64,000 nucleotides of DNA. Source: Nitrospiraceae bacterium. Its GTDB lineage: Bacteria; Nitrospirota; Nitrospiria; Nitrospirales; Nitrospiraceae. The position numbers and the translations under genes were made by a program. The stretch spans positions 625,128-689,127 of the forward strand of contig JBFWWG010000001.1 of the NCBI GenBank assembly GCA_050246315.1, read 5' to 3'. Shown here in pieces: positions 19,544-40,230 of the stretch. The notes under the pieces are model-generated. The model saw only the letters and a program-made list of their open reading frames with translations. It ran no database searches and was not told the DNA's origin. Position 1 is the first letter of the stretch, and every line of letters begins with the position of its first letter.

Positions 19544-19595
19544 CCCGTCCCTGCACGTCTGCACGCCCGCCCGGCCGAGGATAGGAAGCCACCGC

Positions 19596-21990: not shown

Positions 21991-22075
21991 GAGACCCTGT
22001 CATCCAGAATTGCTCTCATCCAGCAGCATTCGAAATGACCGGGAGTGCGCCTCGGTCGAGAGAGGGAGAGGGACA

Positions 22076-22450
22076 GTGCGCGTCCTGCTGATCGTGGAAG
22101 ATGACAGGGAGATGCGCAGCTTGCTCTGTGACGGGCTGTGGGACCTGGGGTTGTCGATTCGTGAAGCCGCGGACGGCGACGAAGCACTGCGGGTGGTGCT
22201 CGAATCCTGTCCGGACGTGATTATTACCGATTTGCGGATGCCGGCGGGGGGGCTCGATTACGTGGCGCGGCTTCGTACCTTCGTGCCGCAGGCACCCATC
22301 ATTCTCATGACCTCATTTGGGGACGCCCAAACCAAGGCCGAGGCCCTCGCTTTGGGCGTCTCTGCCTACTTCGACAAACCGCTTCGGATGAGCGAGCTTC
22401 GGGCCAAGGTGCAGGAGATCTTGGGGCCTTTTTCGGTTCCGTTGTCGTAG
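22076..22450 (+). CDS. Stand-alone response regulator receiver protein
   Basis: LLIVEDD, DVIITDLRMP, ILMTSFG, YFDKP; GTG start after GGGAGAGG. Confidence 0.88.
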   Translation: MRVLLIVEDDREMRSLLCDGLWDLGLSIREAADGDEALRVVLESCPDVIITDLRMPAGGLDYVARLRTFVPQAPIILMTSFGDAQTKAEALALGVSAYFDKPLRMSELRAKVQEILGPFSVPLS

Positions 22451-22552
22451 GAGACAGGATGTAGCCCGATCTCGATCAAGCCCGAATCAGCCATTCATTC
22501 GCAGTAAGCAGTGGCGTATAATAGGGGCGCCATGGCCGGAAGCTCCCCTGAC

Positions 22553-23935
22553 ATGTCCGACACCCCCATCGATCCAGTCCTTGCGGCGCGAGTCGAAGCG
22601 ATCCGCGCGTTGGCTGACCATCAAAGCGAACGGGTGATGGTCGTCAGCCCGAACCTGACGGTGATCTATGCCAACCACGCCGCATGGCCGACTGGAGAAG
22701 TGCCGATCACTTCTTCGAAACCCACCAAGTGCTACGAAGCCATACTCCATCGACAGGTCCCCTGCAGTGCTTGCCCGGTGACGGAAGTCTTCGCGTCGGG
22801 CGAGGTGAAATCGGTGGCCTGTTCGGCCGGAGGGGTGAGACACGCCTGCGGGATGTCTCAGGCCTATCCGCTGAAGGCCAGTACTGGCCGGACCGATTCC
22901 GTCCTGGTCCTCTTCCGCGACGTACGAGATTCGGATGCCGGTGCTCAGACGGTCACAGATCGCCCCGGGTCTGTGTCGAATGAGCCGCAGGGTGCGGGGC
23001 TCGGTGACCTGGTGGGTCGCGGGCCCGCCATGCGAAAGCTGTTCGATACGATCACGCTCGTGGCCAACAGCCAGGCCACGGTGCTGCTTCAAGGAGAGAG
23101 CGGAAGCGGGAAGGAACTGGTCGCCCGCACCATCCACCGCCTCAGCCCTCGTCGGGAGAAGCCGCTGGTGGTTGTGGAGTGCAGCTCCCTGCCCGAGACG
23201 CTGCTCGAAAGCGAGCTGTTCGGTCACGTCAAGGGCGCCTTCACCGGAGCGGTGACGACGAGGCGCGGCCTGTTCGAAGAGGCCGACGGTGGCACGATCT
23301 TCCTGGATGAAATTGCCGATACCACGCTGACCTTTCAAGCCAAGCTGTTGCGTGTGCTGCAAGAAGGGGAGGTCAAACCGGTCGGGAGCAGCCGATCGGT
23401 GAAGGTGGACGTGCGGGTCGTCTCCGCCACCAATAAGAGCCTGTTCGACCTGGTGAAGGCGAAGCAGTTCCGTGAAGACCTCTATTACCGCTTGGCTGTG
23501 CTGCCGATCTTCATGCCGCCGCTCCGCCACCGGGCCGAAGATATCCCGCTGCTGATCGATCGGTTTGTGGCCCAAACAAGCCGGCGGCATAACCGTCCAT
23601 GCAAGCCGGTGACCCAGGAGGCGGCGGAGGCCCTCGCGGCCCATGAATGGCCGGGGAACGTGCGCGAGTTGCTGAATCTGGTGGAGCGGGTGGTCGTCAC
23701 GGCCAAGGGGGACCGGTTGACCCTGGAAGACTTTTTCGGCCCGGCCGCGGCGTCGCCCGGCTTACAGGACCTGCGGACGGTTGTGCGCGACGTCGCCTCC
23801 CAGACGGAGCGGACCAAAATCGTGGAAGCACTGGCGCAGGCCGATGGAAACCGCGTCAGGGCCGCGAAGCTGCTCAACATCAGCCGTGCAAGTCTCTATA
23901 ACAAACTCCGCGTCTATGGCCTGGCCGACGCATAG
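22553..23935 (+). CDS. Sigma54 enhancer-binding protein with an N-terminal Cys-bearing PAS-like domain
   Basis: KCYEAILHRQVPCSACPV; GESGSGKE, GAFTGA, FLDEI, WPGNVREL; HTH LNISRASLYNKL; start uncertain (22511-22553). Confidence 0.92.
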   Translation: MSDTPIDPVLAARVEAIRALADHQSERVMVVSPNLTVIYANHAAWPTGEVPITSSKPTKCYEAILHRQVPCSACPVTEVFASGEVKSVACSAGGVRHACGMSQAYPLKASTGRTDSVLVLFRDVRDSDAGAQTVTDRPGSVSNEPQGAGLGDLVGRGPAMRKLFDTITLVANSQATVLLQGESGSGKELVARTIHRLSPRREKPLVVVECSSLPETLLESELFGHVKGAFTGAVTTRRGLFEEADGGTIFLDEIADTTLTFQAKLLRVLQEGEVKPVGSSRSVKVDVRVVSATNKSLFDLVKAKQFREDLYYRLAVLPIFMPPLRHRAEDIPLLIDRFVAQTSRRHNRPCKPVTQEAAEALAAHEWPGNVRELLNLVERVVVTAKGDRLTLEDFFGPAAASPGLQDLRTVVRDVASQTERTKIVEALAQADGNRVRAAKLLNISRASLYNKLRVYGLADA

Positions 23936-24027: not shown

Positions 24028-24540
24028 TCAGTCCTTCAGCCCGACCATGAACTCACTGAATTGTCGGTTCTGCAGAACGCCTCCGCCGGGGTGAAACAGC
24101 ACGACCTGGCCTTCGGCGTTCAGCAGCACATAGGTCGGCGTCGCGTTGATCTTGAACGATTGCGCCACCCACCGGTCTTCATCGTAGGCGGTCGGGAAGA
24201 CAAAGGTGTCGGGCCGCCCCTTCACGAATTGCTCGACATTCGTTCTCGTGTCCGCAAATCCGATCGACAGGATGCGGAGCGGCGCCGGCTTGCCGCGCCG
24301 AGAGAATTCCCCGAGCAGCGGCAAGTCGCGTTGACAGACTCTGCACCAGGGTGCCCAGAAGACTAGCAGAACCGGCCGTCCCTTGAGCGACTCGTTGCTG
24401 TAGGCCTGGCCCGCGAACGTCACCAGTTCGAAGGACGGCGCCGGTGAGTTCAAGGTCGCCGCCTCCGATTCCGTCGGAATGCAAAGTGCGAATAGACACG
24501 CGACAATGCTGAGGCTGATCCAACGCATGGTGACGCTCAT
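24028..24540 (-). CDS. TlpA/redoxin family thiol-disulfide oxidoreductase, exported
   Basis: Signal peptide; APSFEL, LKGRPVLLVFWAPWCRVC, cis-Pro ATPT. Confidence 0.88.
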   Translation of the reverse strand: MSVTMRWISLSIVACLFALCIPTESEAATLNSPAPSFELVTFAGQAYSNESLKGRPVLLVFWAPWCRVCQRDLPLLGEFSRRGKPAPLRILSIGFADTRTNVEQFVKGRPDTFVFPTAYDEDRWVAQSFKINATPTYVLLNAEGQVVLFHPGGGVLQNRQFSEFMVGLKD

Positions 24541-24542
24541 CC

Positions 24543-25022
24543 TCAAGGCTTGATGTACAGATAGCCCTCTCTCTGTAAGTCCGCGATCCGCTTGACCGCG
24601 ACCGGATGTAACGTGGCGACAAAGCCCTTCGCCAACTTGTCGATGGTCTTGCCGAACATCTTCATCGAGACTTGACACATCTCCGCCTTGGCCCCTTTCT
24701 CGATGATCTGATCGAACCGTTTCGTCATCTCCGGGTCCATCGTATCCTTCTCGAACAATTCGAGCGCCGGGCCGTGCACGACCAACTCGACATCGATCTT
24801 GTCCGGACCGCCTTCGGCGTCGATATGTTTGTTGATGAGCGCCAGCGCATACTTGGCCACCTCGGGGTCCTTGCCGTCCACATGATACAGCACCTTGACC
24901 TTCTCCTTTGGCGCGTCCGCCGCCAAGGCGTGGCTTGGGGCCAAGGATGTCAAGGCCATGAAGGCCGCTGCCACTACTATCATTGTGATGCATAACTGGT
25001 TCCTTCTCGATTTCGTCACCAT
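24543..25022 (-). CDS. Exported DsrE family protein
   Basis: Signal peptide ending ALA; KVLYHV, ELVVHGPAL, single Cys EMCQVSM, C-terminal LQREGYLYIKP; RBS GGAGAG. Confidence 0.85.
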   Translation of the reverse strand: MVTKSRRNQLCITMIVVAAAFMALTSLAPSHALAADAPKEKVKVLYHVDGKDPEVAKYALALINKHIDAEGGPDKIDVELVVHGPALELFEKDTMDPEMTKRFDQIIEKGAKAEMCQVSMKMFGKTIDKLAKGFVATLHPVAVKRIADLQREGYLYIKP

Positions 25023-25847: not shown

Positions 25848-25872
25848 AGACGTTGGCTACATTGGCGCGTCT

Positions 25873-26710
25873 ATGGCACGGCCATAGCGCATTGAGTACG
25901 CCGGGGCGGTCTATCATGTCACGAGTCGCGGGAACGCGCGGCAGGATGTGGTGGCAGACGACCGAGATCGGGTCACCTTCCTCGCGCTGCTCGCTCACGT
26001 GGTCCATCGCTTTGCATGGCGCTGCCATGCCTATTGCCTGATGGACAATCACTATCATCTCCTTATCGAAACACCGCAGCCCAACCTCTCACGGGGTATG
26101 CGCCAACTAAATGGACGCTATACCCAAGACCTATAACCGGAAACATCATCGTGTGGGGCATCTGTTCCAGGGGCGCTTCACCGCGATTCTCGTGGAGAAA
26201 GACGCGCATCTCCTCGAGCTCTGTCGCTATGTGGTCCTCAATCCCGTGCGAGCGAGCCTAGTCCCCCATCCGCGGCTATGGCCGTGGAGTAGTTATCGTG
26301 GCACAGTGGGCGAGACGCACGCTCCCCTTTGGCTGACGACAGACTGGATTTTGGGTCAGTTTGGCCAACGAGTCGGGCCGGCACAAGAGAAGTATCGCTC
26401 CTTTGTCGCCGAAGGACGGGGCGGACCCCGGCCGTGGGAGCAGTTGAGGGGGCAGATCTATCTGGGCTCGGACAAGTTCATTGCCACCCATCAACCGGAT
26501 CGGCCTATCCGCGAGATCCCGCGCCGTCAGACACAAGCCCAGCGGCCTTCCTTACAGACGTTATTTCATCGACAAAGCGGGACGGCGCGGCAGATCGCTG
26601 TGGCCTACCGACGCTATGGTTATCGGCTGACGGAGATCGCGGACCATTTGGGCGTACACTACGCGACGGTGAGTCGCCGGCTGAGGCAAGTCGAGAGGGA
26701 GGATGTGTGA
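25873..26710 (+). pseudogene. REP-associated tyrosine transposase-like (Y1/HUH) gene with C-terminal HTH, disrupted
   Basis: MARP*RIEYAGAVYHVTSRGN, YCLMDNHYHLL (HUH), GHLFQGRF, RYVVLNPVRA, WPWSSY, EIADHLGVHYATVSR; TAG at 25885 and a +1 frameshift near 26128. Confidence 0.9.
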
Positions 26711-26722
26711 TTGCAAGACCCC
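26704..26722 (+). repeat. Right inverted repeat of the RAYT element
   Basis: TGTGTGATTGCAAGACCCC, overlapping the transposase stop codon. Confidence 0.7.
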
Positions 26723-26825
26723 ACAAGGGAAAATAATCAGCCACACCAAAGGAAGTGAGAATCCTCGCCGGGCCATCGTAGCATGACCGGATCTGTCCCT
26801 TCCCGCCCCATTTGAGATCTCCAAA

Positions 26826-26920
26826 TGTCCAAAGAAATAGACAGTCTAACCGCTTGAAATCTGGTAGAGCGGCTTTGGTTTCCTGCCCGCACTGTCTAAC
26901 CGTTTGGAAATCGCGAGAGC
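26826..26920. promoter_or_regulatory. Candidate enhancer sites TGTCYAA-N4-TTRGACA and a 50-bp-period direct repeat
   Basis: TGTCCAA-AGAA-ATAGACA (26826), AGTCTAA-CCGC-TTGAAAT (26843), TGTCTAA-CCGT-TTGGAAA (26893); 100-190 nt upstream of a sigma54 promoter. Confidence 0.5.
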
Positions 26921-27010: not shown

Positions 27011-27025
27011 CGGCACGCAGATTGC
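27011..27025 (+). promoter_or_regulatory. Sigma54 -24/-12 promoter of the multicopper oxidase gene
   Basis: CGGCACGCAGATTGC (GGCACG-N4-TTGC, GG-N10-GC). Confidence 0.65.
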
Positions 27026-27039
27026 GCTAAGCCCAAGCC

Positions 27040-27270
27040 GCCGGTGGAGGTATGGGTGATTAGGACCGGCCTCCGAATGACCCTGCCCATCACGCGATGG
27101 GACCCTCCACCGGCATTAACCGATGATCTCGTGAGGCGCCCAGGGTCAACAGGGAGACGGAACCGACCTGGAGCGAGACACGGACCAGAGTAGAGGCAGG
27201 GTGGAGAGGCAGACAGGGAAGGGTTGCGATCCAAGTCCATACAACCGACCGCGATGTCGCGGTCTTTTTC
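27040..27270 (+). ncRNA. Candidate structured 5' leader/attenuator
   Basis: 11-bp stem GCCGGTGGAGG/CCTCCACCGGC enclosing two hairpins; terminator-like GACCGCGA-TG-TCGCGGTC-TTTTT just before the RBS. Confidence 0.4.
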
Positions 27271-27289: not shown

Positions 27290-30200
27290 ATGACGAGCTT
27301 GTTACATCAACATAAGCGAAGGCGCCGCCGGGGGACCTTGTTGCCTCTCCAGGCGGCGTTGCTGGCAGGGAGTTTGGCCGCAGGCCCAGGACTCTTTGCA
27401 GCCGGAGAGGGTGACCTCTCCCATGAAGGCCATGCCACTCCGGTGGCGTTGCCTGGATGGACCCAGGCCCTGAAGGGCCAGACGGTGGTCGAGGATGCCA
27501 TCGAAGGGCGGGCCGGCCGTTCGGAGAAGATCGAGCTGCAGCACCATCGGGTCATGCGCAAGATGGAAGAGCAAATGGCGGCCGATGCGCAGGTGCAGCA
27601 GACATCCGGTGCATTCAACGGGATGTCGATGATGCACCAGTACATGGGGCAGGATGGTTCGAGCTTCCTGCTCATGACGGACCCGTCCAAGGGAGAGCCT
27701 GTCTCCCTGTCAGGCGGCAAGTGCCCGTCCGGGGTACCGACCAAGCAGTATGACATCTCGATGATCAACGTCGAGGTCACGCTGAATCGCTGGTTGGACT
27801 TCTATCCCGGTTACATGTATGCGCTGACCAAGGATCTCGACAAAGTCCGCGCGGAAGAGGCCAAGAACAAGGCGGCCCGCGAGAAGGATGGGTATGACCC
27901 AGGAGCGGTCACGACCGGCCTTCAGGGCGACGCGATTCAGCCGCTGGTGCTCCGAGCCAATCAAGGCGACTGCGTGAAGTTCACTTTGCGCAACCAGATG
28001 GAGGGGGAGGACGGGAGCTTGCACATCCAATCCTCCAGCATGGTCGTCAGTGCCACCGGCAAGGCGGCCACGACCACCAATCCGGAGTCCATCGTAGAAC
28101 CGGGCAAGGCGGTCGAGATGGAATGGTACATCCATCCGGGGACTCAAGAAGGGGTTCGCCAGTTCCACTCCTTCAGTCATGATCGGGAATTGACGGTGTT
28201 GGGATTGTTCGGCGCGTTCGTGATCGAGCCGAAGGGCTCGAAGTATCTGGATCCGCTTGGGACCGGGGCCGCGCCTGACACGCAGAGCGGCTGGCAGGTC
28301 ATGATCGACAATGGGACCGGGCCCGACTTCCGCGAGTTCGTGATCTTCTATCACGAGATCGGCGACGAGGCTTTTCGGCCGGTCAACAAGAAGGGCGACT
28401 TCCTCCCGCAGCGCGATCCCTTGACCGATGCCTATCGTCCGGGCGGCCGGGCGATCAACTATCGCAGCGAGCCATTCGGGATCGATCAGATGCACCTCCA
28501 GCACGAGTACTTCGGCTTCGAGGATGAATCGTTGGCCTACAGCGCCTATACCTTCGGCGATGTGCCGACGACGATTCCACGCGGCTACCTCGGCGATCCG
28601 GTGAAATGGCGCATCGTGCACGGCGGGTCCGAAGTATTCCATTCGCATCATCCGCATAGCGGATCGATCCGCTGGCAGCGCAGTCCGGGCACAGAGCCCA
28701 ATTCGCTCTGGGCCGCTGGGCAGGATGGGCCGGTGAAGTATCCGGTCGTGCGCACCAAGTCCGATCGTGTGGACGTGGAAGTGATCGGACCATCCGAAGC
28801 GTTGGATCTCGAACCGGAATGCGGTGGTGGTGGATGCCAGCACCTCGCCGGCGAGTTCCTCTTCCACTGCCACGTGGCGCATCACTACGTCGCGGGCATG
28901 TGGGGCTATGGACGGTTCTACAACACCCTGCAGATGGGGGCCGGTCACACGGACACCATGCCCGACATGCGGGAGTTGCCGGATCGCGCCGGTCGCATGA
29001 AGCTGGGGGTCAGCTCGGCTGAGCTGATCGGCAAGACGATCGACTGGTTCGGGAAGACTTTCAAGATCGTCGACAAGAACCAGAAGAGCAACTGGAAGTC
29101 TGATCCGGTTGTCGTGAACATCAAGGACTGGGTCGAAATGTTCATCCCGGCGCAAGGCAAGCCGGGCCATACGGACGACGAGAAGGGCCAGATCATGGCC
29201 TACGATGCGACTGTGTGGGATTGGAAGTGGGACGGTAACGTCGCCAAGGGTGAACGGGAAAGCACCACGGTGCATCCCAAGTATCCCGCAGCGGCAAAGT
29301 GGGACGACAGCACCAGACCGGTGATCCAGTTCGACCCGACCACCGGGAAGATGGCCTGGCCGTTGTTCAAGCCGCACTACGGCAAGCGGGTGCCGTTCTC
29401 GGCCAACCACAGCGGGGCGCCCTGGCTGGAGCCGATCCACCAGGACGAAAACGGTGAGCGCACCTCCGAGCCGGCCAAGCCTGGCGAGCAGGGCAATTGG
29501 TCGCTGTGTCCGGAGAATGCGAACCAGAAATTCTACAACATCCACTTCATCCGGCTGCCGATCACCCTGGCGAAGAAACAGGGGAACGAGCCTCCAATTG
29601 TTGACAAGGACGGGTTGATCTACGTCCTGCACGAGGAGGAGCGGGTGACGCGCGCCAATGATGACCTGAAGTATCCCTTGGTCATCCGCGCGAACGTCTA
29701 CGATTGCGTAGACGTGGTGCTGACCAGCGAGTGGGACGATGACGACTTCACGAATTTCCAAGCGTCGAAGATCAACATCCATCCCCACTTCTTCCAATTC
29801 GACACGGGGAACTCCGACGGCGTGATCTCGGGATTCGAGTACGAGATGTCCACCCGTCCGTTCACGCAGTTCTCGAAGCCGAAGAAGACCGGTTTGCCGG
29901 TTCCGATGAACAGCAAGCTGGTGGAGGGTGTGAAGGCGGGGGCCAAGTCCATCAAGGTGAAGTTGGCCGCCGGTGCGAGCAAGTATCATGTCAACACCGA
30001 AATGCTTGTGGGGGCCGATTGTCTCCGCCCGCACAAGGATCCCTCGGTCTCCGTGGACCGCGATTTCAGTTGTTCCGAGGTCGCGCGCATCAAGGAGATC
30101 AACGGTGACACGCTCACGTTCTTCAAGCCGCTGAAGCACGACCATCCGGCCGGCGATATCGTGACGCCGGAGTTCGTGCGCTATCGGTGGTGGGTGGACG

Positions 30201-32242
30201 TGGATATGGGGACCGTGTTCTGGCACGACCATGCGTTCGGCGCCACGACCTGGCCGCACGGCGGGTTCGGCGTGACTTTGGTCGAGCCCTTTGGGGCAAC
30301 GTACCACGATCCCAAGAACGGCAAGAAGGTGTGGAGCGGTCCGATTGCGGACATCCACGCCAATGAGCCGATCGGCCACGGCGTGAGCGGCAGCTTCCGT
30401 GAGCTCATGGTCTCCATCCATGACACGGTGCCGCACACCGTGAACATCATCCAGGCCGGCAACCCGCCCGGGCAGCCGGTCGAAGTGGCGTTGGAGGCCG
30501 GAAAAACCGTGTCCTTCCAGATGCCGGAGAAGATCCAGAATGCGCCGAATCCGTACCTCAACGGCGGCACGCATACGACCGGCAGCGGCTTCAACTTCAG
30601 GGCCGAGCCGTTCCAACTGCGGCTGAACAACAATCCGGACACGTCGAAGTTGTTCAGCAGCACGATCCATGGAGACCCGGATACGCCGCTGCTTCGCGCG
30701 TACGTCGGTGACACCATGGTGTTCCGGTTGTTGCATCAATTGATGAACGAATCGCACGTGTGGACGATCGCGGGCCATACCTTCCTCACGGAACGGTACG
30801 CCGGGGACGCCAATCGGAAGAACTCGATCCACGTCGGGATCGCCGAGCGGTACGACCTGGTGACCAAGGCCGGCGGCTTCCAGGGCATGCCGGGTGACTA
30901 CATCCACTTCAACGGCCGAAGCTCGCACTTCGCCGAAGGCGGATGGGGCATCGTGCGCGTGCTCGACAAGCCGGTGGCGGATCTGAAGCCGTTGCCGAAG
31001 GGTACGAATCCGATAGGGATTCCGCCCATTCCTTCCTCGGTCTGTCCAGCCGGCGCGCCGGCGAAGAACTTCAATGTGGTGGCGTTGGATCGCCCGTTGA
31101 AGCTGAATCCCAAGGCGCCGGACGCGATCGAGGTGGACTTCGAGCGCAAGATCGAAATGACCGTGCCGGAAGGCAAGATCTTCGCGCTGGAGGATGAGGT
31201 CACCAAGGTGGCGGGGGATGTGATGCCGCATCCGCTCACGCTTCGAGTGAACCTCGGCGACTGCATCAAAGTGAACCTGAAAAACAAGATGAAGAACAGC
31301 CGGGCTTCCTTCTTCGCGCCCGGGCTGGCCTTTGACCCCAGGGATTCACAGGGTCTGAACGTCGGCAACAACGGCGGCGAGCAGACGGTGGGTTCGGGGG
31401 AGAGCCGCACCTACACCTTCTACGCGCATCCAGACAACAAGGAGACGACGTCGCTGGTGTGGGACGGCGGGAACATTGTCGTGAATCCGCGCAACGGTCT
31501 CTATGGGGCGATCATCGTCGGACCGCGCGGGTCGCAGTACCGCGATCCGGTGAGCGGCGAGGATCTCTCGCAGAAGAACGCCTGGCGCGCGGACGTGATC
31601 GTCGATGCGTCGCTGCCCGAGAACGCGGGCAAGCGGAATTACCGGGATGTGGCCCTCTTCTTCCAGGATGAGGACAACATCATCGGCACCGCGTTCATGC
31701 CCTATGTCCAGAACGTGGCGGGGTTGACGGCCGTGAACTACCGGTCGGAGCCCTACAAGTTCCGTGAGGAGCAGGGGTGTAACCTTGGGAAGATCTTCCA
31801 GCCTTGCACGGTGGATAAGCCCGAGGATCCGATCACCCCGCTCATCGAAGCGCACGCGGGCGATCCGGTTCGGATCCATGTGATCGGCGCCAATAGCGAA
31901 CAGAACGGCATGTTCTCGGTGGAAGGCCATGAGTGGCCGATCGAGCCCTATATGCCGGGTGCCGACATGATCAGCACGGTGGAGTACTCCGGGTCTGAAA
32001 CCCTGGACGTGTTCCTCCGCGGCGGGGCGGGCGGACCGTATCGGTTGGCCGGAGATTACCTCTGGTCCAATCAGCGGCTCCCGTACACGCAATCCGGACA
32101 GTGGGGGTATTTCCGGGTGCTGCCGGCGGGCGATCAGCGGGTCCTCCCGCTGGGAGCGGCTGCGGCGGCAGGCCGGCGGGCCGAAGCGGAACCGGCACAA
32201 CCGGTCAGGGAAGCACAGGCAGTTCCCACAGCCGCACGGTAG
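27290..32242 (+). CDS. Very large multicopper oxidase with MnxG-like motif order, probably Tat-exported
   Basis: RBS AAGGAGG; Arg-rich signal RRRRRGTLL; Cu motifs in the order HSHHPH, HCHVAHHYVAGM, IHPHF, FWHDH; repeated cupredoxin segments (PLVLRANQGDC, PLVIRANVYDC, PLLRAYVGD, PLTLRVNLGDC, PLIEAHAGD). Confidence 0.88.
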   Translation: MTSLLHQHKRRRRRGTLLPLQAALLAGSLAAGPGLFAAGEGDLSHEGHATPVALPGWTQALKGQTVVEDAIEGRAGRSEKIELQHHRVMRKMEEQMAADAQVQQTSGAFNGMSMMHQYMGQDGSSFLLMTDPSKGEPVSLSGGKCPSGVPTKQYDISMINVEVTLNRWLDFYPGYMYALTKDLDKVRAEEAKNKAAREKDGYDPGAVTTGLQGDAIQPLVLRANQGDCVKFTLRNQMEGEDGSLHIQSSSMVVSATGKAATTTNPESIVEPGKAVEMEWYIHPGTQEGVRQFHSFSHDRELTVLGLFGAFVIEPKGSKYLDPLGTGAAPDTQSGWQVMIDNGTGPDFREFVIFYHEIGDEAFRPVNKKGDFLPQRDPLTDAYRPGGRAINYRSEPFGIDQMHLQHEYFGFEDESLAYSAYTFGDVPTTIPRGYLGDPVKWRIVHGGSEVFHSHHPHSGSIRWQRSPGTEPNSLWAAGQDGPVKYPVVRTKSDRVDVEVIGPSEALDLEPECGGGGCQHLAGEFLFHCHVAHHYVAGMWGYGRFYNTLQMGAGHTDTMPDMRELPDRAGRMKLGVSSAELIGKTIDWFGKTFKIVDKNQKSNWKSDPVVVNIKDWVEMFIPAQGKPGHTDDEKGQIMAYDATVWDWKWDGNVAKGERESTTVHPKYPAAAKWDDSTRPVIQFDPTTGKMAWPLFKPHYGKRVPFSANHSGAPWLEPIHQDENGERTSEPAKPGEQGNWSLCPENANQKFYNIHFIRLPITLAKKQGNEPPIVDKDGLIYVLHEEERVTRANDDLKYPLVIRANVYDCVDVVLTSEWDDDDFTNFQASKINIHPHFFQFDTGNSDGVISGFEYEMSTRPFTQFSKPKKTGLPVPMNSKLVEGVKAGAKSIKVKLAAGASKYHVNTEMLVGADCLRPHKDPSVSVDRDFSCSEVARIKEINGDTLTFFKPLKHDHPAGDIVTPEFVRYRWWVDVDMGTVFWHDHAFGATTWPHGGFGVTLVEPFGATYHDPKNGKKVWSGPIADIHANEPIGHGVSGSFRELMVSIHDTVPHTVNIIQAGNPPGQPVEVALEAGKTVSFQMPEKIQNAPNPYLNGGTHTTGSGFNFRAEPFQLRLNNNPDTSKLFSSTIHGDPDTPLLRAYVGDTMVFRLLHQLMNESHVWTIAGHTFLTERYAGDANRKNSIHVGIAERYDLVTKAGGFQGMPGDYIHFNGRSSHFAEGGWGIVRVLDKPVADLKPLPKGTNPIGIPPIPSSVCPAGAPAKNFNVVALDRPLKLNPKAPDAIEVDFERKIEMTVPEGKIFALEDEVTKVAGDVMPHPLTLRVNLGDCIKVNLKNKMKNSRASFFAPGLAFDPRDSQGLNVGNNGGEQTVGSGESRTYTFYAHPDNKETTSLVWDGGNIVVNPRNGLYGAIIVGPRGSQYRDPVSGEDLSQKNAWRADVIVDASLPENAGKRNYRDVALFFQDEDNIIGTAFMPYVQNVAGLTAVNYRSEPYKFREEQGCNLGKIFQPCTVDKPEDPITPLIEAHAGDPVRIHVIGANSEQNGMFSVEGHEWPIEPYMPGADMISTVEYSGSETLDVFLRGGAGGPYRLAGDYLWSNQRLPYTQSGQWGYFRVLPAGDQRVLPLGAAAAAGRRAEAEPAQPVREAQAVPTAAR

Positions 32243-32270
32243 TCCGGTTCTGACAGAGCAGTGAGGACCT

Positions 32271-32313
32271 GGGGGAGCTGCGTGGAGTCCATGCGGCTCC
32301 CCCGTTCTCTTTT
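32271..32313 (+). terminator. Intrinsic terminator or stabilising hairpin after the multicopper oxidase
   Basis: GGGGGAGCTGCGTGGA-G-TCCATGCGGCTCCCCC followed by GTTCTCTTTT. Confidence 0.7.
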
Positions 32314-32472
32314 AGAACGTAAAGGGTTGAGTATTGGGGATCACGTGCTGGATGAGCGAAGGTTGGTGTGCAGACGAGAGAATCACCGAAGGCTGTTCTT
32401 CGGCGGCGTCCATGAAGGGGGGCGTCGCCCAGTGAGCCGCCGGTTCTAGCAAAGCTTGGTATGGAGGCCGGA

Positions 32473-33417
32473 ATGGGTAGTCACACAATGACCAGATGGG
32501 TAGCGGTGTTGGTGCTGGGGGGGTGGCTATGGGCTGGTCAAGCCCGTGCCTATGAAGAGATCACCGTATCGGACGGTGGGACCGTCACCGGGGTCGTCAC
32601 GCTTGACGGAAAGGTTCCTAAGCCCAAGGGGTACAACTTGACGACGTTGCCGGACCCGTTTTACTGCGGGCGCATCTCGGATGGGGCGGGCTGGCGCATC
32701 TTGCAGCCGTTTCAGGTTGGGCCGGGAGGCGAGTTTCGCGATGTCGTCGTCTACTTGGAAGGCATTGAAAAAGGCAAGCCCTTTGAGGACACGGGGATCC
32801 CGCAGATCGAAGCGAAAGATTGTCTCTTCGTCCCGTTCACGACGGTGGTCCGGGACAGTCAAACGGTGACGGTGGTCAACATGGACCCCGTCATGCACGA
32901 CATTCAAGCTTACGAAACCTCGCATTTGGGTCCGCGCGTGCTGTTCAACGTGCCGCTGCCGATGAACCCGCAGCATCCGCGTGAGTTGAAAGATCGGACC
33001 GACGCCGGCCTGTATCACCGGCATATGGCCGGCGCGCCGATGAAGCAACTGGTCAATCTCAGCAAGGGGCGCCGAATCTTCGTCATGCAGTGCGGCTTCC
33101 ATGCCTACATGGAGAGCTGGGGTCTGGCCGTGATGAACCCCTACTTCGCTAAGACGGACGAGCGAGGCCGGTTCACCCTGTCGGATGTGCCGCCGGGTAC
33201 CTACAAACTGGTCGTCTGGCACCCCTATGTTCGTTCGGCGACGGAACGAACCGTGACCATCGGTCCGAAGGAGAAGGTAGACGTGACGATTGCGGTCTCG
33301 GCCCCAACGGGGAGGCTCTATGCCAACGAGGTGTTGGATCATCCGTACAATCGTTACAGCGTGACCGAGGAAACGCAGCAGGAAATCGATCCCCTGCTGC
33401 AGAAGCAGGATCGCTGA
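32473..33417 (+). CDS. Exported protein with a cupredoxin-like core and a carboxypeptidase-regulatory-like domain
   Basis: Signal peptide ending ARA; CLFVPF, NMDPVMHDI, CGFHAYM, NPYFAKTDERGRFTLSDVPPGTYKLVVWHP. Confidence 0.8.
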   Translation: MGSHTMTRWVAVLVLGGWLWAGQARAYEEITVSDGGTVTGVVTLDGKVPKPKGYNLTTLPDPFYCGRISDGAGWRILQPFQVGPGGEFRDVVVYLEGIEKGKPFEDTGIPQIEAKDCLFVPFTTVVRDSQTVTVVNMDPVMHDIQAYETSHLGPRVLFNVPLPMNPQHPRELKDRTDAGLYHRHMAGAPMKQLVNLSKGRRIFVMQCGFHAYMESWGLAVMNPYFAKTDERGRFTLSDVPPGTYKLVVWHPYVRSATERTVTIGPKEKVDVTIAVSAPTGRLYANEVLDHPYNRYSVTEETQQEIDPLLQKQDR

Positions 33418-33435
33418 ACATAGCCAAGACGTTGA

Positions 33436-33495
33436 TGGTCAACGGTCGGTCGTGATGTCGTTCGTCTGGGAATGAGGCTTGACGAATGATGATGA
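33436..33495. repeat. 7-nt-periodic inverted array (family B), degenerate
   Basis: GGTCAAC GGTCGGT CGTGAT...TGAGGCT TGACGAA TGATGA. Confidence 0.45.
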
Positions 33496-33657
33496 TTCAG
33501 AGGACGCCGCTGTTGCGAGGACGGTCCAGGCAGCCGATCGGCGAATGCGCCGGAGGTCTGGATACCGTGGACGAATCGATCGTTCGATGGAGCTGGCTCG
33601 TCCTGGGATGGGGTGCGGTCACGTCTGTCGTTCTGCAGGGTGACGAGGAGGCCGAAC

Positions 33658-34659
33658 ATGAAACCGAATGAAACCGATGTGCTCAAGGTCGTGGATAAGG
33701 TCGCCACGTTGTTGCTGGGGCTGGCCGTCCTCCTGATGGTGGCCAGCGTGGCATGGGGGCTGGATACGCAGGACATCAGCGTCGAGTGGACGCCGGAGGG
33801 AAAGCGTCTGGCGATGGAGCGGGCCGCGCTTCCGACCAACGATGTGATGGTCCGCATCCCGGCCGGTGAGTTCCTGATGGGGAGTGTGCGCCAGGTGGAT
33901 CGCAACGCCTACCCTGCCGAGTTCCCGCAGCGCCGCGTTTGGCTGGATGCCTACGATATCGACAAGTACGAGGTGACGGCGCTCCAGTACCTGAAGTTCG
34001 TCGTGGCCACCGACCGCCAGCCGCTGTTGGACTGGCGCTACGACGGGGGCAATTTTCAGGAGAACATGGCGCATCATCCAGTCATGCACGTGACCTGGTT
34101 TGACGCCGATGCCTATTGCAAGTGGGCCGGCAACCGGCTTCCGACCGAAGCGGAGTGGGAAAAAGCGGCCCGAGGCGAAGACGGTCGTATTTTTCCCTGG
34201 GGCAATCAGATGGCCGGGTTGACGCGAGCCAACTACGGCCGGACCGGCCTATCTGGCCCGGTCCGCGATCGCCCGGAGCGGCTGCTGCTCTATCCTCCGA
34301 TCATCAGCGTCGAGAAGTATGAGAACTCGGTCAGTCCCTACGGGCTTCATCAAATGGCCGGGAATGTCGCCGAATGGGTGGCGGATTGGTACGACCGGGA
34401 GTACTACAAATCGGCGTCCGAACGAAATCCCAAGGGGCCTGACTCGGGCACAAACCGAGCCTTCCGCGGCGGTGGATGGATCGACAGCACTCCGACGGTT
34501 CGGGTGGCGCAGCGCAACGGGTCGCCGCCGGATACGAAAATGAACTGGCTTGGATTCCGGTGCGCTCGCGACGCGCAGGAATCATCGGGTGCGAAACTCT
34601 CCCTGGCTCAGCCCGAGAGAATAGGGCCGGCCGACGCCGGACCGAGCAGCGTGCGATGA
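33658..34659 (+). CDS. FGE-sulfatase (SUMF1/EgtB/PvdO) domain protein, exported, lacking the catalytic Cys pair
   Basis: MVRIPAGEFLMGS, HPVMHVTW, RLPTEAEWEKAARG, SPYGLHQMAGNVAEWV, RGGGW (no CxxxxC), GFRC. Confidence 0.88.
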   Translation: MKPNETDVLKVVDKVATLLLGLAVLLMVASVAWGLDTQDISVEWTPEGKRLAMERAALPTNDVMVRIPAGEFLMGSVRQVDRNAYPAEFPQRRVWLDAYDIDKYEVTALQYLKFVVATDRQPLLDWRYDGGNFQENMAHHPVMHVTWFDADAYCKWAGNRLPTEAEWEKAARGEDGRIFPWGNQMAGLTRANYGRTGLSGPVRDRPERLLLYPPIISVEKYENSVSPYGLHQMAGNVAEWVADWYDREYYKSASERNPKGPDSGTNRAFRGGGWIDSTPTVRVAQRNGSPPDTKMNWLGFRCARDAQESSGAKLSLAQPERIGPADAGPSSVR

Positions 34660-34669
34660 TCGACCAGGG

Positions 34670-34796
34670 GTGATTCGTCAACCGTCATCCGCCACAGGTC
34701 AATCGAAAGGAAGCGGAGGCGATGAAGGAGATCCGGTCTCTTCCGAAAATGACGATTGGCCATTGACGGCTGATGTCGGTGGTGCACGGCGATTGC
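34670..34796. repeat. 7-nt-periodic inverted array (family B)
   Basis: CGTCAAC CGTCATC CGCCACA GGTCAAT ... ATGACGA TTGGCCA TTGACGG CTGATG. Confidence 0.6.
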
Positions 34797-34842
34797 CGCA
34801 GACATGTTGATGAATCGTGTGGGCGCGATGAGGAGACGACTC

Positions 34843-35598
34843 ATGGCGATCATGCCGCCCGATGTCGAGTCGAGGCTTCAGCAGATTCGCAACGATCTGG
34901 ATCTCCAGTTGGTGCACAGCCAATATTGGCTGCAGGATGAATTCGTCGTGCTCGACAAATTGCTGCCGCAGGATCTGATGGATGCGATCGTGGCCGAAGC
35001 CAGGCTTGTTCAACCCAGCATGAACCGCAATTACGTCCCGGGTCACAAGAAGGGCGGGAGCGTCAGTTTCTACACCTTGCGGGAACAGGCGCCGGCCACG
35101 CTCAGCCTGTACCGGTCCTCGGCCTGGCGGTGGCTCCTGAGCCGCATCACGGAATCGGATCTCCTATTGTGTCCAGAGGACGATCCCCATTCCTGCGCGC
35201 TCTATTACTACACCAAGCCCGGTGATCACATCGGATTCCACTACGATACCTCCTACTACAAAGGCCAGCGGTACACCGTGCTGATCGGCTTGGTCGAACG
35301 ATCGGACCATTGCCGACTGGTGGCCCGGGTCCGCACCAAAGGTCAGGCGGAAGAGATCAGGGAGACCAGGATTCCCATGGGGCCGGGCGCGGTCGTCCTG
35401 TTCAACGGCGATCGACTCTGGCACGCCGTGACTCCCTTGGCGGAGGGAGAAGAGCGCATCGTGCTGACGTTGCAATATGTGACGAATCAGGCGATGGGAC
35501 CGGCGAAGCGTCTGTTCTCGAACTTGAAGGACGCCTTTGCCTACTTTGGACCGGCCGTGTTGGCGCGGCGCCGATCCGGGACTGCCGGGGGAACGTGA
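34843..35598 (+). CDS. Fe(II)/2-oxoglutarate-dependent oxygenase
   Basis: GFHYD...LWHAVTP...ERIVL (HxD..H triad and 2OG-binding Arg); RBS AGGAGA; alternative start 34804. Confidence 0.82.
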   Translation: MAIMPPDVESRLQQIRNDLDLQLVHSQYWLQDEFVVLDKLLPQDLMDAIVAEARLVQPSMNRNYVPGHKKGGSVSFYTLREQAPATLSLYRSSAWRWLLSRITESDLLLCPEDDPHSCALYYYTKPGDHIGFHYDTSYYKGQRYTVLIGLVERSDHCRLVARVRTKGQAEEIRETRIPMGPGAVVLFNGDRLWHAVTPLAEGEERIVLTLQYVTNQAMGPAKRLFSNLKDAFAYFGPAVLARRRSGTAGGT

Positions 35599-35720
35599 CC
35601 ACGCGATCGCACAGGAGGGATGACGGGCGAACGAAACGACTGTGACACGACGAAACAGGCGCTCGGGGCCGGCCGAACGTTCATGCAATGCACCGATCTC
35701 ATTCGAGGAGAGACACGAGC

Positions 35721-36419
35721 ATGGACAACCGGCGGTATCGCGAGACATGGATCTGTGTGGGTGTGATCGTGGTCGTGCTGGGCCTGACAGGGTGGCAGCC
35801 TGCCCGGGCGCAGGACGAACTCGGCAACATGGTGTTTTTCAGGGGCGGCTATGTGTACATGTTCAGCGATCGGGCGAATGAAATTTTCACCGACACGCAG
35901 AATGCGTTGGGGCAGGGGAACAATACGGGCGATCAGGGGTGGTATGTCGGGGCCGGACTCGATTTGGTCCTCTCGAAGGACACCTGGGGGGCGATGAGCA
36001 AGACCTGGGTAGTGGGGGAGATTGGTCTGCAATTCAATCGGTTGAACTCGAAGACCGTCACCAGCGCGGTCCCGACGCTGACGGCACTCGCCGGTGTGCC
36101 GCTTGGCGGAGGGACGACGCCGGCTCAGACACAATTGACGATGGTGACGATCAATGTGGCGCCGAAGATCAAGTTCATGGAAGGGAGCCGGTTTCGCCCC
36201 TGGATTATTCCGGTCGGATTGGACATCCACGTCATGAGTCCGCCTTCCAATCAAACGCAGTACCTGGACGTGGGCGTGCAGTTCGGGGCCGGGTTCGAGT
36301 TTCAACTCTGGAAGGCCTTCAAGCTCGGCGCGGATGCCCGGTACCATTTGACCGCCAACCTGACCAACACGACGAACAACTATTTCCAGGCGGGACCGTA
36401 CGTGGGCATTTCGTTTTGA
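35721..36419 (+). CDS. Outer-membrane beta-barrel (porin-like) protein
   Basis: RBS GAGGAG; signal peptide ending ARA; NMVFFRGG, WYVGAGLD, PKIKFMEGSRFRPWIIP, GADARYH; C-terminal Phe. Confidence 0.8.
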   Translation: MDNRRYRETWICVGVIVVVLGLTGWQPARAQDELGNMVFFRGGYVYMFSDRANEIFTDTQNALGQGNNTGDQGWYVGAGLDLVLSKDTWGAMSKTWVVGEIGLQFNRLNSKTVTSAVPTLTALAGVPLGGGTTPAQTQLTMVTINVAPKIKFMEGSRFRPWIIPVGLDIHVMSPPSNQTQYLDVGVQFGAGFEFQLWKAFKLGADARYHLTANLTNTTNNYFQAGPYVGISF

Positions 36420-36458
36420 TCTGACAGGCGGGGTTCCATCGCCATGGGAGGATCGGCA

Positions 36459-36995
36459 ATGCGCCTCGACGTTCGTGTTCCGGCCGCCGCTGTTTGTGAG
36501 CGGCGGAACCTGTTCCTGCTGATGTTGGCCGCTTGTGCCGAGATGCATGACAGAGGGAGCCCCGGCGAAACGATCGCGACGCTGGATGACTTTCCCGCGC
36601 AACTGGATCTGGCGTTAGACCTGGTCGAAGCCGTGAAGCCGCTTCCATCGGTCCGGGCGACCATGAATGGTCGCCCGGTCGCCAACCTCACCAGACTGTG
36701 GCACACGCTCTCGTGCTATCGCGAAAGCTTGGGCGAGACGGATCCCCGGACATTCTGCAGGAGGCAAGCCGTGCGCGTCGGTGGGACAGGGGGCTGTCCT
36801 GATCCCGCCTGCGGCTCGTCCTGCTCCTTCATCTGCGCCCGGTGCTGCCAGCTTGTCGGAGAGGAGGGGCAGAGGCCGAGCGGGGATCGCCTGTCCAGGG
36901 TCGCGGTCGATGCGGAAGTGGACTGGTGTCCCAATCTGCCCTTGTTCCGTTCGAATGAGAACCGGGAGGTCCAGGATGAACACGATTTACTATGA
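36459..36995 (+). CDS. Cys-rich hypothetical protein
   Basis: RBS GGAGG; C-x4-C-x3-C-x3-C-x2-CC cluster plus WCPNL; fills the gap in a same-strand run. Confidence 0.65.
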   Translation: MRLDVRVPAAAVCERRNLFLLMLAACAEMHDRGSPGETIATLDDFPAQLDLALDLVEAVKPLPSVRATMNGRPVANLTRLWHTLSCYRESLGETDPRTFCRRQAVRVGGTGGCPDPACGSSCSFICARCCQLVGEEGQRPSGDRLSRVAVDAEVDWCPNLPLFRSNENREVQDEHDLL

Positions 36996-37905
36996 GGCTC
37001 CCTTCAGCGACGACATCAGACGGCAGCAGCTTTTCAGCGGGCAATTGTTCGTCTATGCTCCCCGTCCCAGCACCATCGCCTTTTGTGACTTTGCCAGGAC
37101 ACTCATCCAGGAGGCGTTTGGAACCCTCTATCCGCCCACGGCGCAGCACCATCTCTCGGTGGAGCAGTACGCGGGCATTCTCGGGAAGCTCAAGCCGCGG
37201 TTTATTCATCACGCGGAATCGAAGAAACATATCCAAAACATTTTCTCCGAGATGGGCTGCGACTTGACCAAGTCCTTTTTCGATGTGCCGAAAATGCGAA
37301 GCTCGACGAGCGACAACTACCTCACGACGGGCATCGCCTATGCCTGGCATCCCCATCGGGACACCTGGTATGCCGCGCCGGACTGCCAGATCAATTGGTG
37401 GATTCCGATCTATGACATCGAGTCCCACAATGCCATGGCCTTTCATCCCTGTTACTGGAACCGCCCGGTGCGGAATACGTCGAGCGGCTACAACTACTAT
37501 CAATGGAACCAACTCCACCGGGGGGAGCATGTCGCGCAGTATCTGACGGAAGATCCGCGTCCTCTGCCTCGCCCCAGCGAACCGTTCGAGCGCGAGCCGG
37601 AGATCCGCTTGATTTGTCCCGCCGGCGGGATCATCCTGTTCGCCGCCGCGCAGATGCATTCGAGCGTGCCCAATACGTCGGGGCGGACCAGGTTCAGCAT
37701 CGACTTCAGGACGGTGCATCTCGACGATGTCCTTGCCAAGCGTGGCGCGCCGAACCTGGATAACGAGTCGACCGGGACGGTCATGAGGGACTACCTCCGC
37801 GCATCGGATTTCTCGCGCCTTCCCGACGAGGTCGTAGCGCTCTACGACGACGAATCCGGAAGCTCCGGCGAACTGGTCTATCGAGACCGAGAACAGGGTG
37901 TCTGA
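36976..37905 (+). CDS. PhyH-like Fe(II)/2OG dioxygenase-fold protein
   Basis: HPHRDTWY, INWWIPI, MHSSVPNTSGRTRFSIDFR; RBS GGAGG. Confidence 0.75.
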   Translation: MNTIYYEAPFSDDIRRQQLFSGQLFVYAPRPSTIAFCDFARTLIQEAFGTLYPPTAQHHLSVEQYAGILGKLKPRFIHHAESKKHIQNIFSEMGCDLTKSFFDVPKMRSSTSDNYLTTGIAYAWHPHRDTWYAAPDCQINWWIPIYDIESHNAMAFHPCYWNRPVRNTSSGYNYYQWNQLHRGEHVAQYLTEDPRPLPRPSEPFEREPEIRLICPAGGIILFAAAQMHSSVPNTSGRTRFSIDFRTVHLDDVLAKRGAPNLDNESTGTVMRDYLRASDFSRLPDEVVALYDDESGSSGELVYRDREQGV

Positions 37906-37992
37906 CGCCGTTCCGCCCGGTGACCTGTGTGAATGTCGAAGCGAGGGACGCTTCCGACGGGCTTGCGACGCTTCACGAACGACGAGTTGCGA

Positions 37993-38469
37993 ATGACGAT
38001 GGTGCTGACCTGGCTGCACGTTCTTGCTGCGGTCAGTTGGATCGGAGGCATGATCTTCTTGTCGGTGGTCGTCGTGCCGGCCATTCGGACACCGCCCTTG
38101 GCTCAGCAACGAGCGGTCCTCTTCCCCATCGTGGCCCGCCGATTTCGCCTCGTGGCCTGGGGAGCCATGCTGCTGTTGCTGGTGACCGGACCTATTCTCG
38201 CCGCCGGGCGCGGTATCTCTCTCATCAATCCAACCACTTGGCCCTCTGTCTTTACGATCAAGCTGACCCTCGTTGGTCTCCTGCTTGGACTGACGACTGC
38301 GCACGATCTTGCGTTGGGTCCTCGTGTGGCGGAGATCATGAAACGACCGGAGCCGGAACGCTCCACATCAGAATTGCTGCTCCTTCGGTGGTCTCCCTGG
38401 GTGGCCCGAAGTTCGCTGCTGCTGGCCTTGGCCGTCCTGTTTTCGGCTGTCTCTCTGGCGAGGAGCTAG
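37993..38469 (+). CDS. CopD/DUF4149-like four-TM membrane protein
   Basis: WLHVLAAVSWIGGMIFL, LLVTG, IKLTLV, AHDLALGP. Confidence 0.75.
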   Translation: MTMVLTWLHVLAAVSWIGGMIFLSVVVVPAIRTPPLAQQRAVLFPIVARRFRLVAWGAMLLLLVTGPILAAGRGISLINPTTWPSVFTIKLTLVGLLLGLTTAHDLALGPRVAEIMKRPEPERSTSELLLLRWSPWVARSSLLLALAVLFSAVSLARS

Positions 38470-38526: not shown

Positions 38527-39144
38527 TCTACCGTTACCGTGTAGAACCGGGGACGGCTCGAAGAGATTTATGAATTGGTGCGGAAGCTTGGCGCCGACGG
38601 CTGGCACCTCTCCCTGCTGGTCCCGGTCGGATGTGGAATGGAGATCACGCAGAGTGCCCAGCTTACGTCGCGGGATTACGAAGAGGTGTTGTATTGGATT
38701 GACGAGCTTGCGCAACGCGCAGCGACGGAAGTCCGTGCCACCTGTGCGCCGCACGCACAGCGCATCCGGCTCCCGCGGCAGGCGATGCACCCCCTCATCG
38801 TCACTGCTCCCCCCCTCAGGGGGCAGAGGGAAGGGTGAGGAGGGGTTGCAGACGCGCCGCGGCTGCTTAGCCGGGACTAGGATTTGTTTTGTCTTTCATT
38901 GCGGCGTGGTCTTTCCCTGCGGCTATCTCCCGGTGTCGGCCGGGAACGTGCGCAAGCAATCCTTCGCATCTATCTGGGCGGAGGCACCCGTTTTCGAGGA
39001 ATTGCGTGATCCGGACCTGCTGTTGGGGAAGTGAGGAGTGTGCGAATATCGAATCGTCTGTGGCGGCTGCCGGGCACGCGCGTTCGGAAGAGTGGAGACC
39101 ATGTTAGCGACGAACCCGGATGTCGCTATTCATCGATTCGGTAA
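38527..39144 (+). pseudogene. Radical SAM/SPASM (AhbC/AhbD/NirJ-like heme biosynthesis) remnant
   Basis: IYELVRKLGADGWHLSLLVPVGCG, RATCAPH, GCLAG..CFV...VFPCGYLP..GNVR, LRDPDLLLGK*GVCEYRIVCGGCRARA, DEPGCRY; no N-terminal CxxxCxxC; stops at 38542 and 39032; two frameshifts. Confidence 0.85.
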
Positions 39145-40180: not shown

Positions 40181-40230
40181 CGAGAGGGGCCGGCCACGGC
40201 AGCCGGCCGGAGCAAAGAGAAGGGTGATGC

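Follow-up and report, generated by a model that had tools for sequence, protein, structure and literature searches.

The MnxG subunit of the Mnx complex of Bacillus sp. PL-12 (PDB 9bxa) is an Mn(II)/Mn(III) oxidase, and a putative periplasmic multicopper oxidase (MCO) of Nitrospina gracilis and Nitrospira defluvii was described in 2013, with a proposed role in defence against reactive oxygen species via Mn(III) (PMC3578206). Here we examine a giant MCO gene of this family, together with its control region and neighbours, in a 64,000-nucleotide stretch of a Nitrospiraceae bacterium (the window: assembly GCA_050246315.1, contig JBFWWG010000001.1, positions 625,128 to 689,127); coordinates below are window positions unless a contig or locus is named. 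The Nitrospina gracilis member is placed in the family on the description in PMC3578206.

The family is among the most highly expressed redox proteins without an assigned role in nitrite oxidizers, in Pacific proteomes only one oxidoreductase of the Nitrospinae is reported to be more abundant than their 'MnxG', and members are routinely labelled manganese oxidase ahead of any assay. The substrate would decide whether counts of 'mnxG' in Nitrospira reflect Mn cycling in filters and oceans or nitrogen and redox chemistry. The gene family itself is not new, having been in print since 2013. New is a split of its paralogs into a set controlled by sigma54 and an enhancer and a set within NXR clusters. 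Also new are a candidate for a dedicated activator and a connection with a marked induction at low O2, recorded only in supplementary tables. These results offer a signal to vary, a partner to co-express and substrates to assay.

Fold, copper sites and phylogenetic position

27290..32242, + strand: giant multicopper oxidase, predicted six-domain MnxG fold, 1650 aa, with a signal peptide and an N-terminus rich in His and Met; a single type-1 site plus a trinuclear cluster; member of clade A, orthologous to NITMOv2_3987 of N. moscoviensis

The oxidase starts at an ATG (27290) preceded by GGAGG, within a frame open from TTG 27224 (1672 aa); motif positions are given in the 1650-aa numbering and the fold model in the 1672-aa numbering. 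An earlier sequence-only reading of the window had proposed an open reading frame (ORF) of about 1650 aa with a complete set of type-1, type-2 and type-3 copper ligands in an MnxG-like order. The frame and all four motifs are confirmed (HSHHPH at 451, HCHVAHHYVAGM at 526, IHPH at 830 and WHDH at 978), giving a complete ligand set in the order HxxHxH, HCH-H-M, HxH, HDH. Across 79 aligned relatives, which extend down to 29% identity, conservation is complete or at least 90% for the ten His, the Cys and the axial Met. The N-terminal motifs HEGH, QHHRVMRKM and GMSMMHQYM are present as reported, and about five His and eight Met of residues 36-130 are retained in most of 73 orthologues. Export, also proposed earlier, is likely, by twin-arginine translocation (Tat) or another route: an Arg pair lies within residues 1-25 in 64 of the 73 orthologues but a simple Tat-like pattern in only 30.

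MnxG of Bacillus (9bxa) is the only solved sequence relative of the oxidase (E 1.7e-81). An AlphaFold2 model of residues 160-1260 (predicted local distance difference test, pLDDT, 90.6; predicted template modelling score, pTM, 0.90) has 9bxa as its top match, with a Foldseek E-value of 1.6e-61, a Z-score of 34.7 and a root-mean-square deviation of 2.7 A over 739 aligned residues; the next-best fold is ceruloplasmin (Z 24.3). Domains 5-6, outside the modelled stretch, match the repeats of 9bxa by sequence only. The ligand set and the predicted fold both support a place in the MnxG-type six-domain MCO fold class, in line with the likeness first read from motif order.

Sequence comparison nevertheless indicates that the oxidase is not an orthologue of Bacillus MnxG. 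A validated Bacillus stand-in (L110) scores 1642 bits to 9bxa, versus 277 for the oxidase. Trees were built from 762 profile columns of domains 1-4 for 115 sequences (FastTree) and 46 of these (IQ-TREE), with an arbitrary root on two Bacillus-type sequences and only 15 near-identical clade loci retained. In them the Nitrospira proteins form their own clade (ultrafast bootstrap 100), apart from Bacillus-type and Pseudomonas-like branches, the latter represented by alphaproteobacterial plasmid proteins as unvalidated stand-ins for authentic P. putida MnxG, McoA, MofA and CueO. The oxidase reaches 101.3 bits on NCBIfam NF041487 (Pseudomonas-type MnxG; cut-off 3100), a cut-off passed by no locus in the whole genome, and 15.9 bits on the laccase/CueO/CopA profile TIGR01480 (cut-off 479); a search of the genome with the NirK profile TIGR02376 did not match the oxidase locus. 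Overall acidic content was uninformative, as it did not separate the oxidase from Bacillus MnxG.

Promoter, putative enhancer and candidate activator

The sequence-only reading missed the control system of the oxidase, which comprises a sigma54 site, an enhancer palindrome and an activator gene. Locus counts here and below are drawn from 78 of 79 clade-A loci fetched, each neighbour count being limited to loci with enough flank.

18161..19543, + strand: receiver-domain sigma54 activator (Pfam Response_reg and Sigma54_activat); belongs to the conserved regulatory block upstream, same position in many loci
19401..21782, + strand: PAS-domain histidine kinase (Pfam PAS, HisKA and HATPase_c); syntenic, true start perhaps later
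22070..22450, + strand: single-domain response regulator (Pfam Response_reg); syntenic, start approximate
22511..23935, + strand: Cys-rich sigma54-dependent activator (Pfam), no receiver domain; 40 of 56 loci have it 4.5 kb or less upstream
26827..26842, + strand: palindromic upstream activator site GTCYA-N6-TRGAC, putative enhancer; 63 of 66 clade-A loci
27011..27025, + strand: sigma54 -24/-12 site CGGCACGCAGATTGC; GGCAY-N5-WTGC upstream in 63 of 71 clade-A loci
32270..32304, + strand: terminator-like hairpin (16-bp stem and T run) after the oxidase stop; 57 of 64 loci

The strict sigma54 pattern was found in 63 of 71 upstream regions against 0.8% expected, and a looser pattern in 67; the loci are related and the pattern was relaxed post hoc after the window's own site had been viewed. 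The canonical TGGC-N8-TGC pattern was rejected, occurring at chance level (3/71). Because the sigma54 pattern is post hoc, stronger support comes from its fixed spacing of 177-186 nt (about 182 nt) to an independently found palindrome, for which Markov shuffles gave an expectation of 0.0005. The whole genome contains six GTCYA-N6-TRGAC palindromes, two of them followed by a sigma54-like site, and of these two pairs only that of the oxidase precedes a gene start, the other overlapping an ORF. Among paralog copies from other loci the sigma54 site is absent before 15 of 18, including the NXR-cluster clade, and the two paralogs in the window's own genome lack it as well; a 1627-aa tandem copy in locus L033 and two divergent copies do have it.

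The Cys-rich protein encoded at 22511-23935 is likely to be the dedicated activator of the oxidase: it has one match per genome in 14 of 15 same-family genomes, and its N-terminal region has five conserved Cys (C74, C85, C88, C104 and C113). The sigma54 promoter itself is likely to respond to oxygen. No published description of the promoter, the palindrome or the activator was found in the literature searched, which covers few subscription papers, and we regard the three as a newly defined control module.

Two further arrangements were observed at related loci. Twelve loci (e.g. L037:18428-19138), the window not being among them, have a gene close to the oxidase for an FNR-like regulator whose N-terminus is Cys-rich. 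In one lineage (L022, L028, L056 and L065) different genes stand in place of the regulator block, yet the oxidase retains its sigma54 site, at about 405-415 nt upstream.

The leader of the oxidase gene spans 278 nt, and an Rfam search of it for a riboswitch gave no match. Many orthologous leaders show a small hairpin directly ahead of the ribosome-binding site (27247-27264 in the window), which may affect translation or mRNA stability. Attenuation at this hairpin was rejected because its T run is not conserved, any hairpin with a T run occurring in only 17 of 69 leaders. For the terminator-like hairpin past the oxidase, the count in the list comes from a pattern recount, the detector used for the leaders having found only 13/64.

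Distribution and paralogs

The best 120 homologues are 68-91% identical to the oxidase; those with names belong to Nitrospira or Nitrospirota, and one is annotated 'putative Manganese oxidase'. In a sample of 300 other Nitrospirota genomes (E < 1e-20, with at most two candidates scored in many genomes), matches occurred in 101 of 102 other Nitrospiria genomes versus 0 of 199 from other Nitrospirota classes. By these searches the family is core and multi-copy in the class Nitrospiria. N. defluvii has three copies and N. moscoviensis four, one in each being 83-85% identical to the oxidase and the others 65-70%.

The genome's own sister-clade paralog (C4:100443-105314; 69-70% identical to the oxidase) heads a block of cupredoxin-like genes, a bd-like oxidase, cytochromes c, NxrC-like proteins and a TorD-like chaperone. 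Since this block has the arrangement of the NXR/bd-like cluster in PMC3578206, whereas the window oxidase sits outside the NXR cluster, the family is already known and the window gene is a sister copy within it.

A third giant MCO of the genome (1740 aa; G000:C1:556887-562109, - strand; L006) groups with the alphaproteobacterial plasmid proteins and is the copy nearest the Pseudomonas-type MnxG model, its best piece scoring 216 bits, below the cut-off; it is a separate candidate Mn oxidase. Both oxidase clades occur in tandem in L022, L028 and L056. The 1627-aa tandem copy in L033 (15729-20612) may be a chimera, since its signal peptide and promoter are clade-A-like and its catalytic region clusters with the other paralogs. 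Beyond the phylum, a 2500-aa Planctomycetota relative (P0122 cluster; 47% identical over the query) is annotated with DUF3347, and in this nearest outgroup the oxidase would therefore be fused to other domains.

Expression in published data sets

Transcript values for a nitrite-only chemostat of N. moscoviensis are given in Table_1 of PMC6606698, the meanings of whose columns are taken from their position and the text. On this basis NITMOv2_3987 has a mean of 4464, or 45.7x the median, and ranks 19, followed by the adjacent partner at 130, the next FGE gene at 147, the activator at 195, the barrel at 343 and the CopD-like gene at 2475. Of the other copies, that in the NXR cluster stands at rank 53 and a third at rank 1365. 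Values drop from 4464 to 1031 and 937 past the hairpin. The medium contained, per litre, 34.4 ug MnSO4.H2O and 20 ug CuCl2.2H2O (PMC6606698), which by arithmetic correspond to about 0.2 uM Mn and about 0.12 uM Cu (chelated). We infer that this Mn would suffice for catalytic cycling and not for mineral. RNA contigs (four runs, two studies) span the oxidase and the downstream run; contig depth can neither rank genes nor show a single transcript, and neither the contigs nor the low cover at 25484-26811 was used as evidence of level.

A 1627-aa MCO of N. marina is the most significant low-O2 protein in the supplements to PMC8115632, rising from 33, 42 and 12 spectra to 503, 409 and 436, and from about 14 to 1885 copies per cell in a targeted assay, a 16- to 130-fold increase; it is unnamed in the main text and appears only in supplementary tables. 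Among 295 proteins and 111 loci its peptide was found only in the L033 tandem copy, which has the same length and carries the sigma54 site and palindrome at the same spacing. A 322-aa protein, with 0 spectra before and 13-27 at low O2, could be assigned through its length and its 388-aa neighbour to a paralog of the blue-copper partner in the same region. Periplasmic Cu/Zn superoxide dismutase (SOD) and KatG rise alongside the oxidase paralog (PMC8115632). In the ocean, Nitrospinae 'MnxG', of unconfirmed function, peaks in the oxycline and correlates with O2 at r -0.47 and with KatG in the oxygenated south at r 0.64 (PMC9477243).

Gene neighbourhood

24028..24540, - strand: TlpA/ResA-like thioredoxin (Pfam/NCBIfam); 0 of 52 loci, same place in G305; patchy insertion
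24543..25022, - strand: exported DsrE-like protein (Pfam DsrE); 0 of 52 loci, same place in G305; patchy insertion
25345-25770, - strand: WD40 fragment between activator and enhancer; no match in the G305 stretches fetched
26111..26710, + strand: REP-associated tyrosine-transposase-like ORF (NF047646, 36.8 bits, below cut-off); 1 of 57 loci
32461..33417, + strand: exported blue-copper-motif protein with CarboxypepD_reg domain and CGFHAYM; at most 1.5 kb downstream in 47 of 58 loci
33613..34659, + strand: exported FGE-sulfatase-domain protein (Pfam PF03781, E 3.8e-58); 42 of 50 loci
34804..35598, + strand: Fe/2OG-fold protein A (Pfam HalD/2OG); 7 of 45 loci; accessory
35688..36419, + strand: small outer-membrane beta-barrel (Pfam OMP_b-brl, below cut-off); 20 of 45 loci; semi-conserved
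36444..36995, + strand: Cys-rich protein of no known family; 17 of 45 loci; semi-conserved
36979..37905, + strand: Fe/2OG-fold (PhyH-like) protein B (Pfam PhyH); 1 of 45 loci, present in G305; accessory
37933..38469, + strand: CopD-like small membrane protein (Pfam CopD, 33 bits against a cut-off of 32.1; NCBIfam CopD far below); 25 of 45 loci; semi-conserved

The clade-A neighbour counts give a conserved core of the oxidase, the blue-copper-motif protein and an FGE-domain protein, single or in two copies; the other genes are lineage-level. The sequence-only reading had listed the downstream genes correctly and had taken the whole run as one dedicated system of copper loading and uptake. That wider proposal is not supported by the synteny comparison, in which the blue-copper, FGE-domain and activator genes are conserved while the 2OG enzymes and the TlpA/DsrE pair are patchy: TlpA, DsrE (0/52 each) and 2OG protein B (1/45) are rejected as core parts, and protein A occurs in only 7/45. 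The full run is kept in one same-genus genome (G305), and a 99%-identical relative (L007) lacks TlpA/DsrE. This pair does lie upstream on the opposite strand, as had been noted, with the WD40 fragment and the REP-transposase-like ORF intervening; the latter has several relatives elsewhere in the genome, occurs also in G305 and falls outside the oxidase system.

The partner at 32461-33417 has the ligands H146, C211, H214 and M217 in all 77 sequences compared, and this conservation suggests a type-1 (blue) copper site of the form His...Cys-x2-His-x2-Met. Its single-sequence, alignment-free model reached a pLDDT of only 31.9; no solved relative was found below E 0.15, and an Atlas search recovered its own family only. 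FGE-domain genes occur as two in tandem in most relatives. The window's FGE-domain protein, earlier described as Cys-free, has two invariant Cys (C169 and C317); the catalytic Cys pair of FGE is presumably absent. The barrel protein has two invariant His (H181 and H220), and Pfam, NCBIfam and Atlas searches with the Cys-rich protein gave no match. CopC genes adjoin Streptomyces and Bacillus relatives of the oxidase.

Past the CopD-like gene, 38527-39118 holds the remnant of an AhbD-like radical SAM gene of haem synthesis, in two reading frames and with its N-terminal part gone; longer versions stand at the same place in L010, L019, L072 and L085. Genes for hemerythrin-domain, tandem universal stress protein (USP) and CDGSH-motif proteins follow at 39569-41564. 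This region may form a wider low-O2 neighbourhood, because in N. marina the proteins most raised at low O2 include USPs.

Possible functions

The substrate was left open by the sequence-only reading, and we agree. Because the only characterized relatives oxidize Mn, we tentatively favour, as a possibility still short of probable, a periplasmic enzyme that turns trace Mn(II) into Mn(III) as everyday redox defence in a nitrite oxidizer and not for mineral formation. In MCOs generally, a type-1 copper takes up electrons and a His-Cys-His path leads them to a trinuclear cluster that reduces O2 to water. The signal peptide would take the oxidase out of the cytoplasm, its likely location being the periplasm. 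Its single type-1 copper, in domain 2, would accept electrons and relay them by the His-Cys-His path to the trinuclear cluster for the reduction of O2 to water. In one-electron steps, trace Mn(II) would be oxidized to soluble Mn(III), which would then quench superoxide, as PMC3578206 proposed. The Cys-rich activator may bind the palindrome and respond to O2 or redox state. Transcription probably stops for the most part at the hairpin past the oxidase, and the blue-copper and FGE-domain proteins would therefore be made in smaller amounts, perhaps as helpers in copper loading or electron transfer. Kuenenia, an anaerobe, retains the cupredoxin-like genes and lacks the MCO (PMC3578206); this absence, core presence in the class, high expression at trace Mn and Cu, and co-induction of the paralog with Cu/Zn SOD together point to routine periplasmic redox management. 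Members of Ca. Manganitrophaceae each have two novel MCOs (PMC9040806), which may belong to the oxidase family.

Several points weigh against this assignment. Identity to the stand-in for Bacillus MnxG orthologues is about 33% on conserved columns, and many uncharacterized lineages separate the two in the tree. Searches of the genome with validated MnxE and MnxF queries gave a best E of 0.42, a result that small divergent proteins could escape. No Mn(II)-oxidation assay of the family was found in the literature searched, and a preprint reports that homology is a poor predictor of Mn oxidation. The sensory role of the activator's Cys-rich region is putative. The low-O2 induction is that of a paralog, which its peptide, its length and the genes beside it assign to a copy 65% identical to the oxidase; the IDs and lengths tried in the N. 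marina table did not bring up the clade-A copy, and the adjacent 306-aa partner rose only 1.5-fold, which was not significant.

A less probable though still credible alternative is that the blue-copper neighbour takes single electrons from periplasmic carriers of the NXR chain and feeds them to the type-1 copper of the oxidase and on to O2 when the respiratory chain backs up. An invariant H/C/H/M protein follows both paralog clades, the sister paralog shares its block with the bd-like oxidase, cytochromes c, NxrC-like proteins and TorD-like chaperone, cupredoxins are suggested as NXR electron carriers in PMC3578206, the genome has no match to PF00115 (haem-copper oxidase family), and the 322-aa partner paralog appears at low O2 in N. 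marina. Such an electron valve would, however, presumably conserve no energy and compete for scarce O2; the partner transcript is about a quarter of the oxidase's, and the immediately adjacent partner is not significantly induced.

We consider it unlikely that the oxidase converts NO to nitrite as ceruloplasmin does, clearing NO from NirK or HAO where NO reductase is absent. The same lack of a match to PF00115, a family that includes NorB, would fit this role, as would a NirK-like gene in the genome (183.8 bits, below cut-off), ceruloplasmin as next-best fold and the low-O2 induction of the paralog. Ceruloplasmin is cited as an NO oxidase and nitrite synthase (PMC6712297), comammox Nitrospira lack nitrosocyanin and need another candidate NO oxidase (PMC6478695), and the family is absent from Kuenenia (PMC3578206). 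Against this, the oxidase has no sequence feature for NO binding, N. inopinata shows no net NO consumption during nitrite oxidation (PMC6478695), and the family spans the class, including lineages without nitrification genes. A search of the genome for AMO gave no match, but its control gave none either. The specific form of the proposal, that this is the missing periplasmic NO oxidase of Nitrospira, switched at low O2 by the Cys-rich activator through GTCYA-N6-TRGAC, is likewise unlikely; if true, it would supply the unassigned NO-to-nitrite step in comammox strains. No NO oxidase proposal for this protein was found in the literature searched, with the coverage given above.

Improbable, too, is a Cu(I) oxidase whose His/Met-rich N-terminus captures Cu(I), or a ferroxidase that provides iron to the iron-rich NXR system, in either case for the handling of metal in the periplasm. 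Cu(I) capture is the role of the Met-rich insert in CueO, and the N-terminal His and Met of the oxidase are kept in most orthologues; CopD-like and barrel genes are close by in about half of loci, and CopC genes adjoin the Streptomyces and Bacillus relatives. Expression is nevertheless very high at about 0.12 uM chelated Cu, and the CopD-like gene is expressed below the median in N. moscoviensis and missing from 20 of 45 loci.

A surface-exported system of Mn or Fe biomineralization with its own uptake and loading machinery, close to the special metal-oxidation system first proposed for the window, is unlikely and the least favoured reading, for against the MnxG fold, sigma54 control paralleling P. 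putida MnxR (PMC13689576), GspD-like secretins (below cut-off) and over-representation of Nitrospira in Mn-removing sand filters (preprint) stand a multi-copy gene in print since 2013 and core to all Nitrospiria whatever their habitat, strong transcription at trace Mn, no MnxE/F homologue found in the genome, machinery that is mostly patchy across loci, and the presence in the genome of another copy that lies nearer the Pseudomonas-type MnxG model.

Comparison with known systems

As in MnxG of 9bxa, the type-1 ligands of the oxidase lie in domain 2 and the trinuclear cluster between domains 2 and 3, with the same motif order. Unlike that protein of 1227 aa, the oxidase has 1650 aa, with large insertions, a His/Met-rich N-terminus and a signal peptide. 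No homologue of the MnxE/MnxF accessory ring of the Bacillus complex was found in the genome, and a blue-copper-motif protein adjoins the oxidase. With Pseudomonas-type MnxG it shares export, giant size, a sigma54 site and kinase and regulator genes close by. It differs from MnxS1/S2/R control in an adjoining activator without a receiver domain and with a Cys-rich N-terminus, and a SCO1/SenC gene is not among its conserved neighbours. The six-domain, pseudo-trimeric cupredoxin fold is shared with ceruloplasmin, which acts as ferroxidase, cuprous oxidase and NO oxidase. In ceruloplasmin the trinuclear cluster has its own domain-interface arrangement; the oxidase, at 17% identity, has one type-1 site and its cluster at another interface.

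Within the family, the oxidase is 83% identical to one N. defluvii copy, 85% to NITMOv2_3987 of N. moscoviensis and 87% to P0003, the 'putative Manganese oxidase' of N. tepida. Clade A, to which it belongs, is set apart from the NXR-cluster copies by its sigma54 site and palindrome, the former of which those copies lack.

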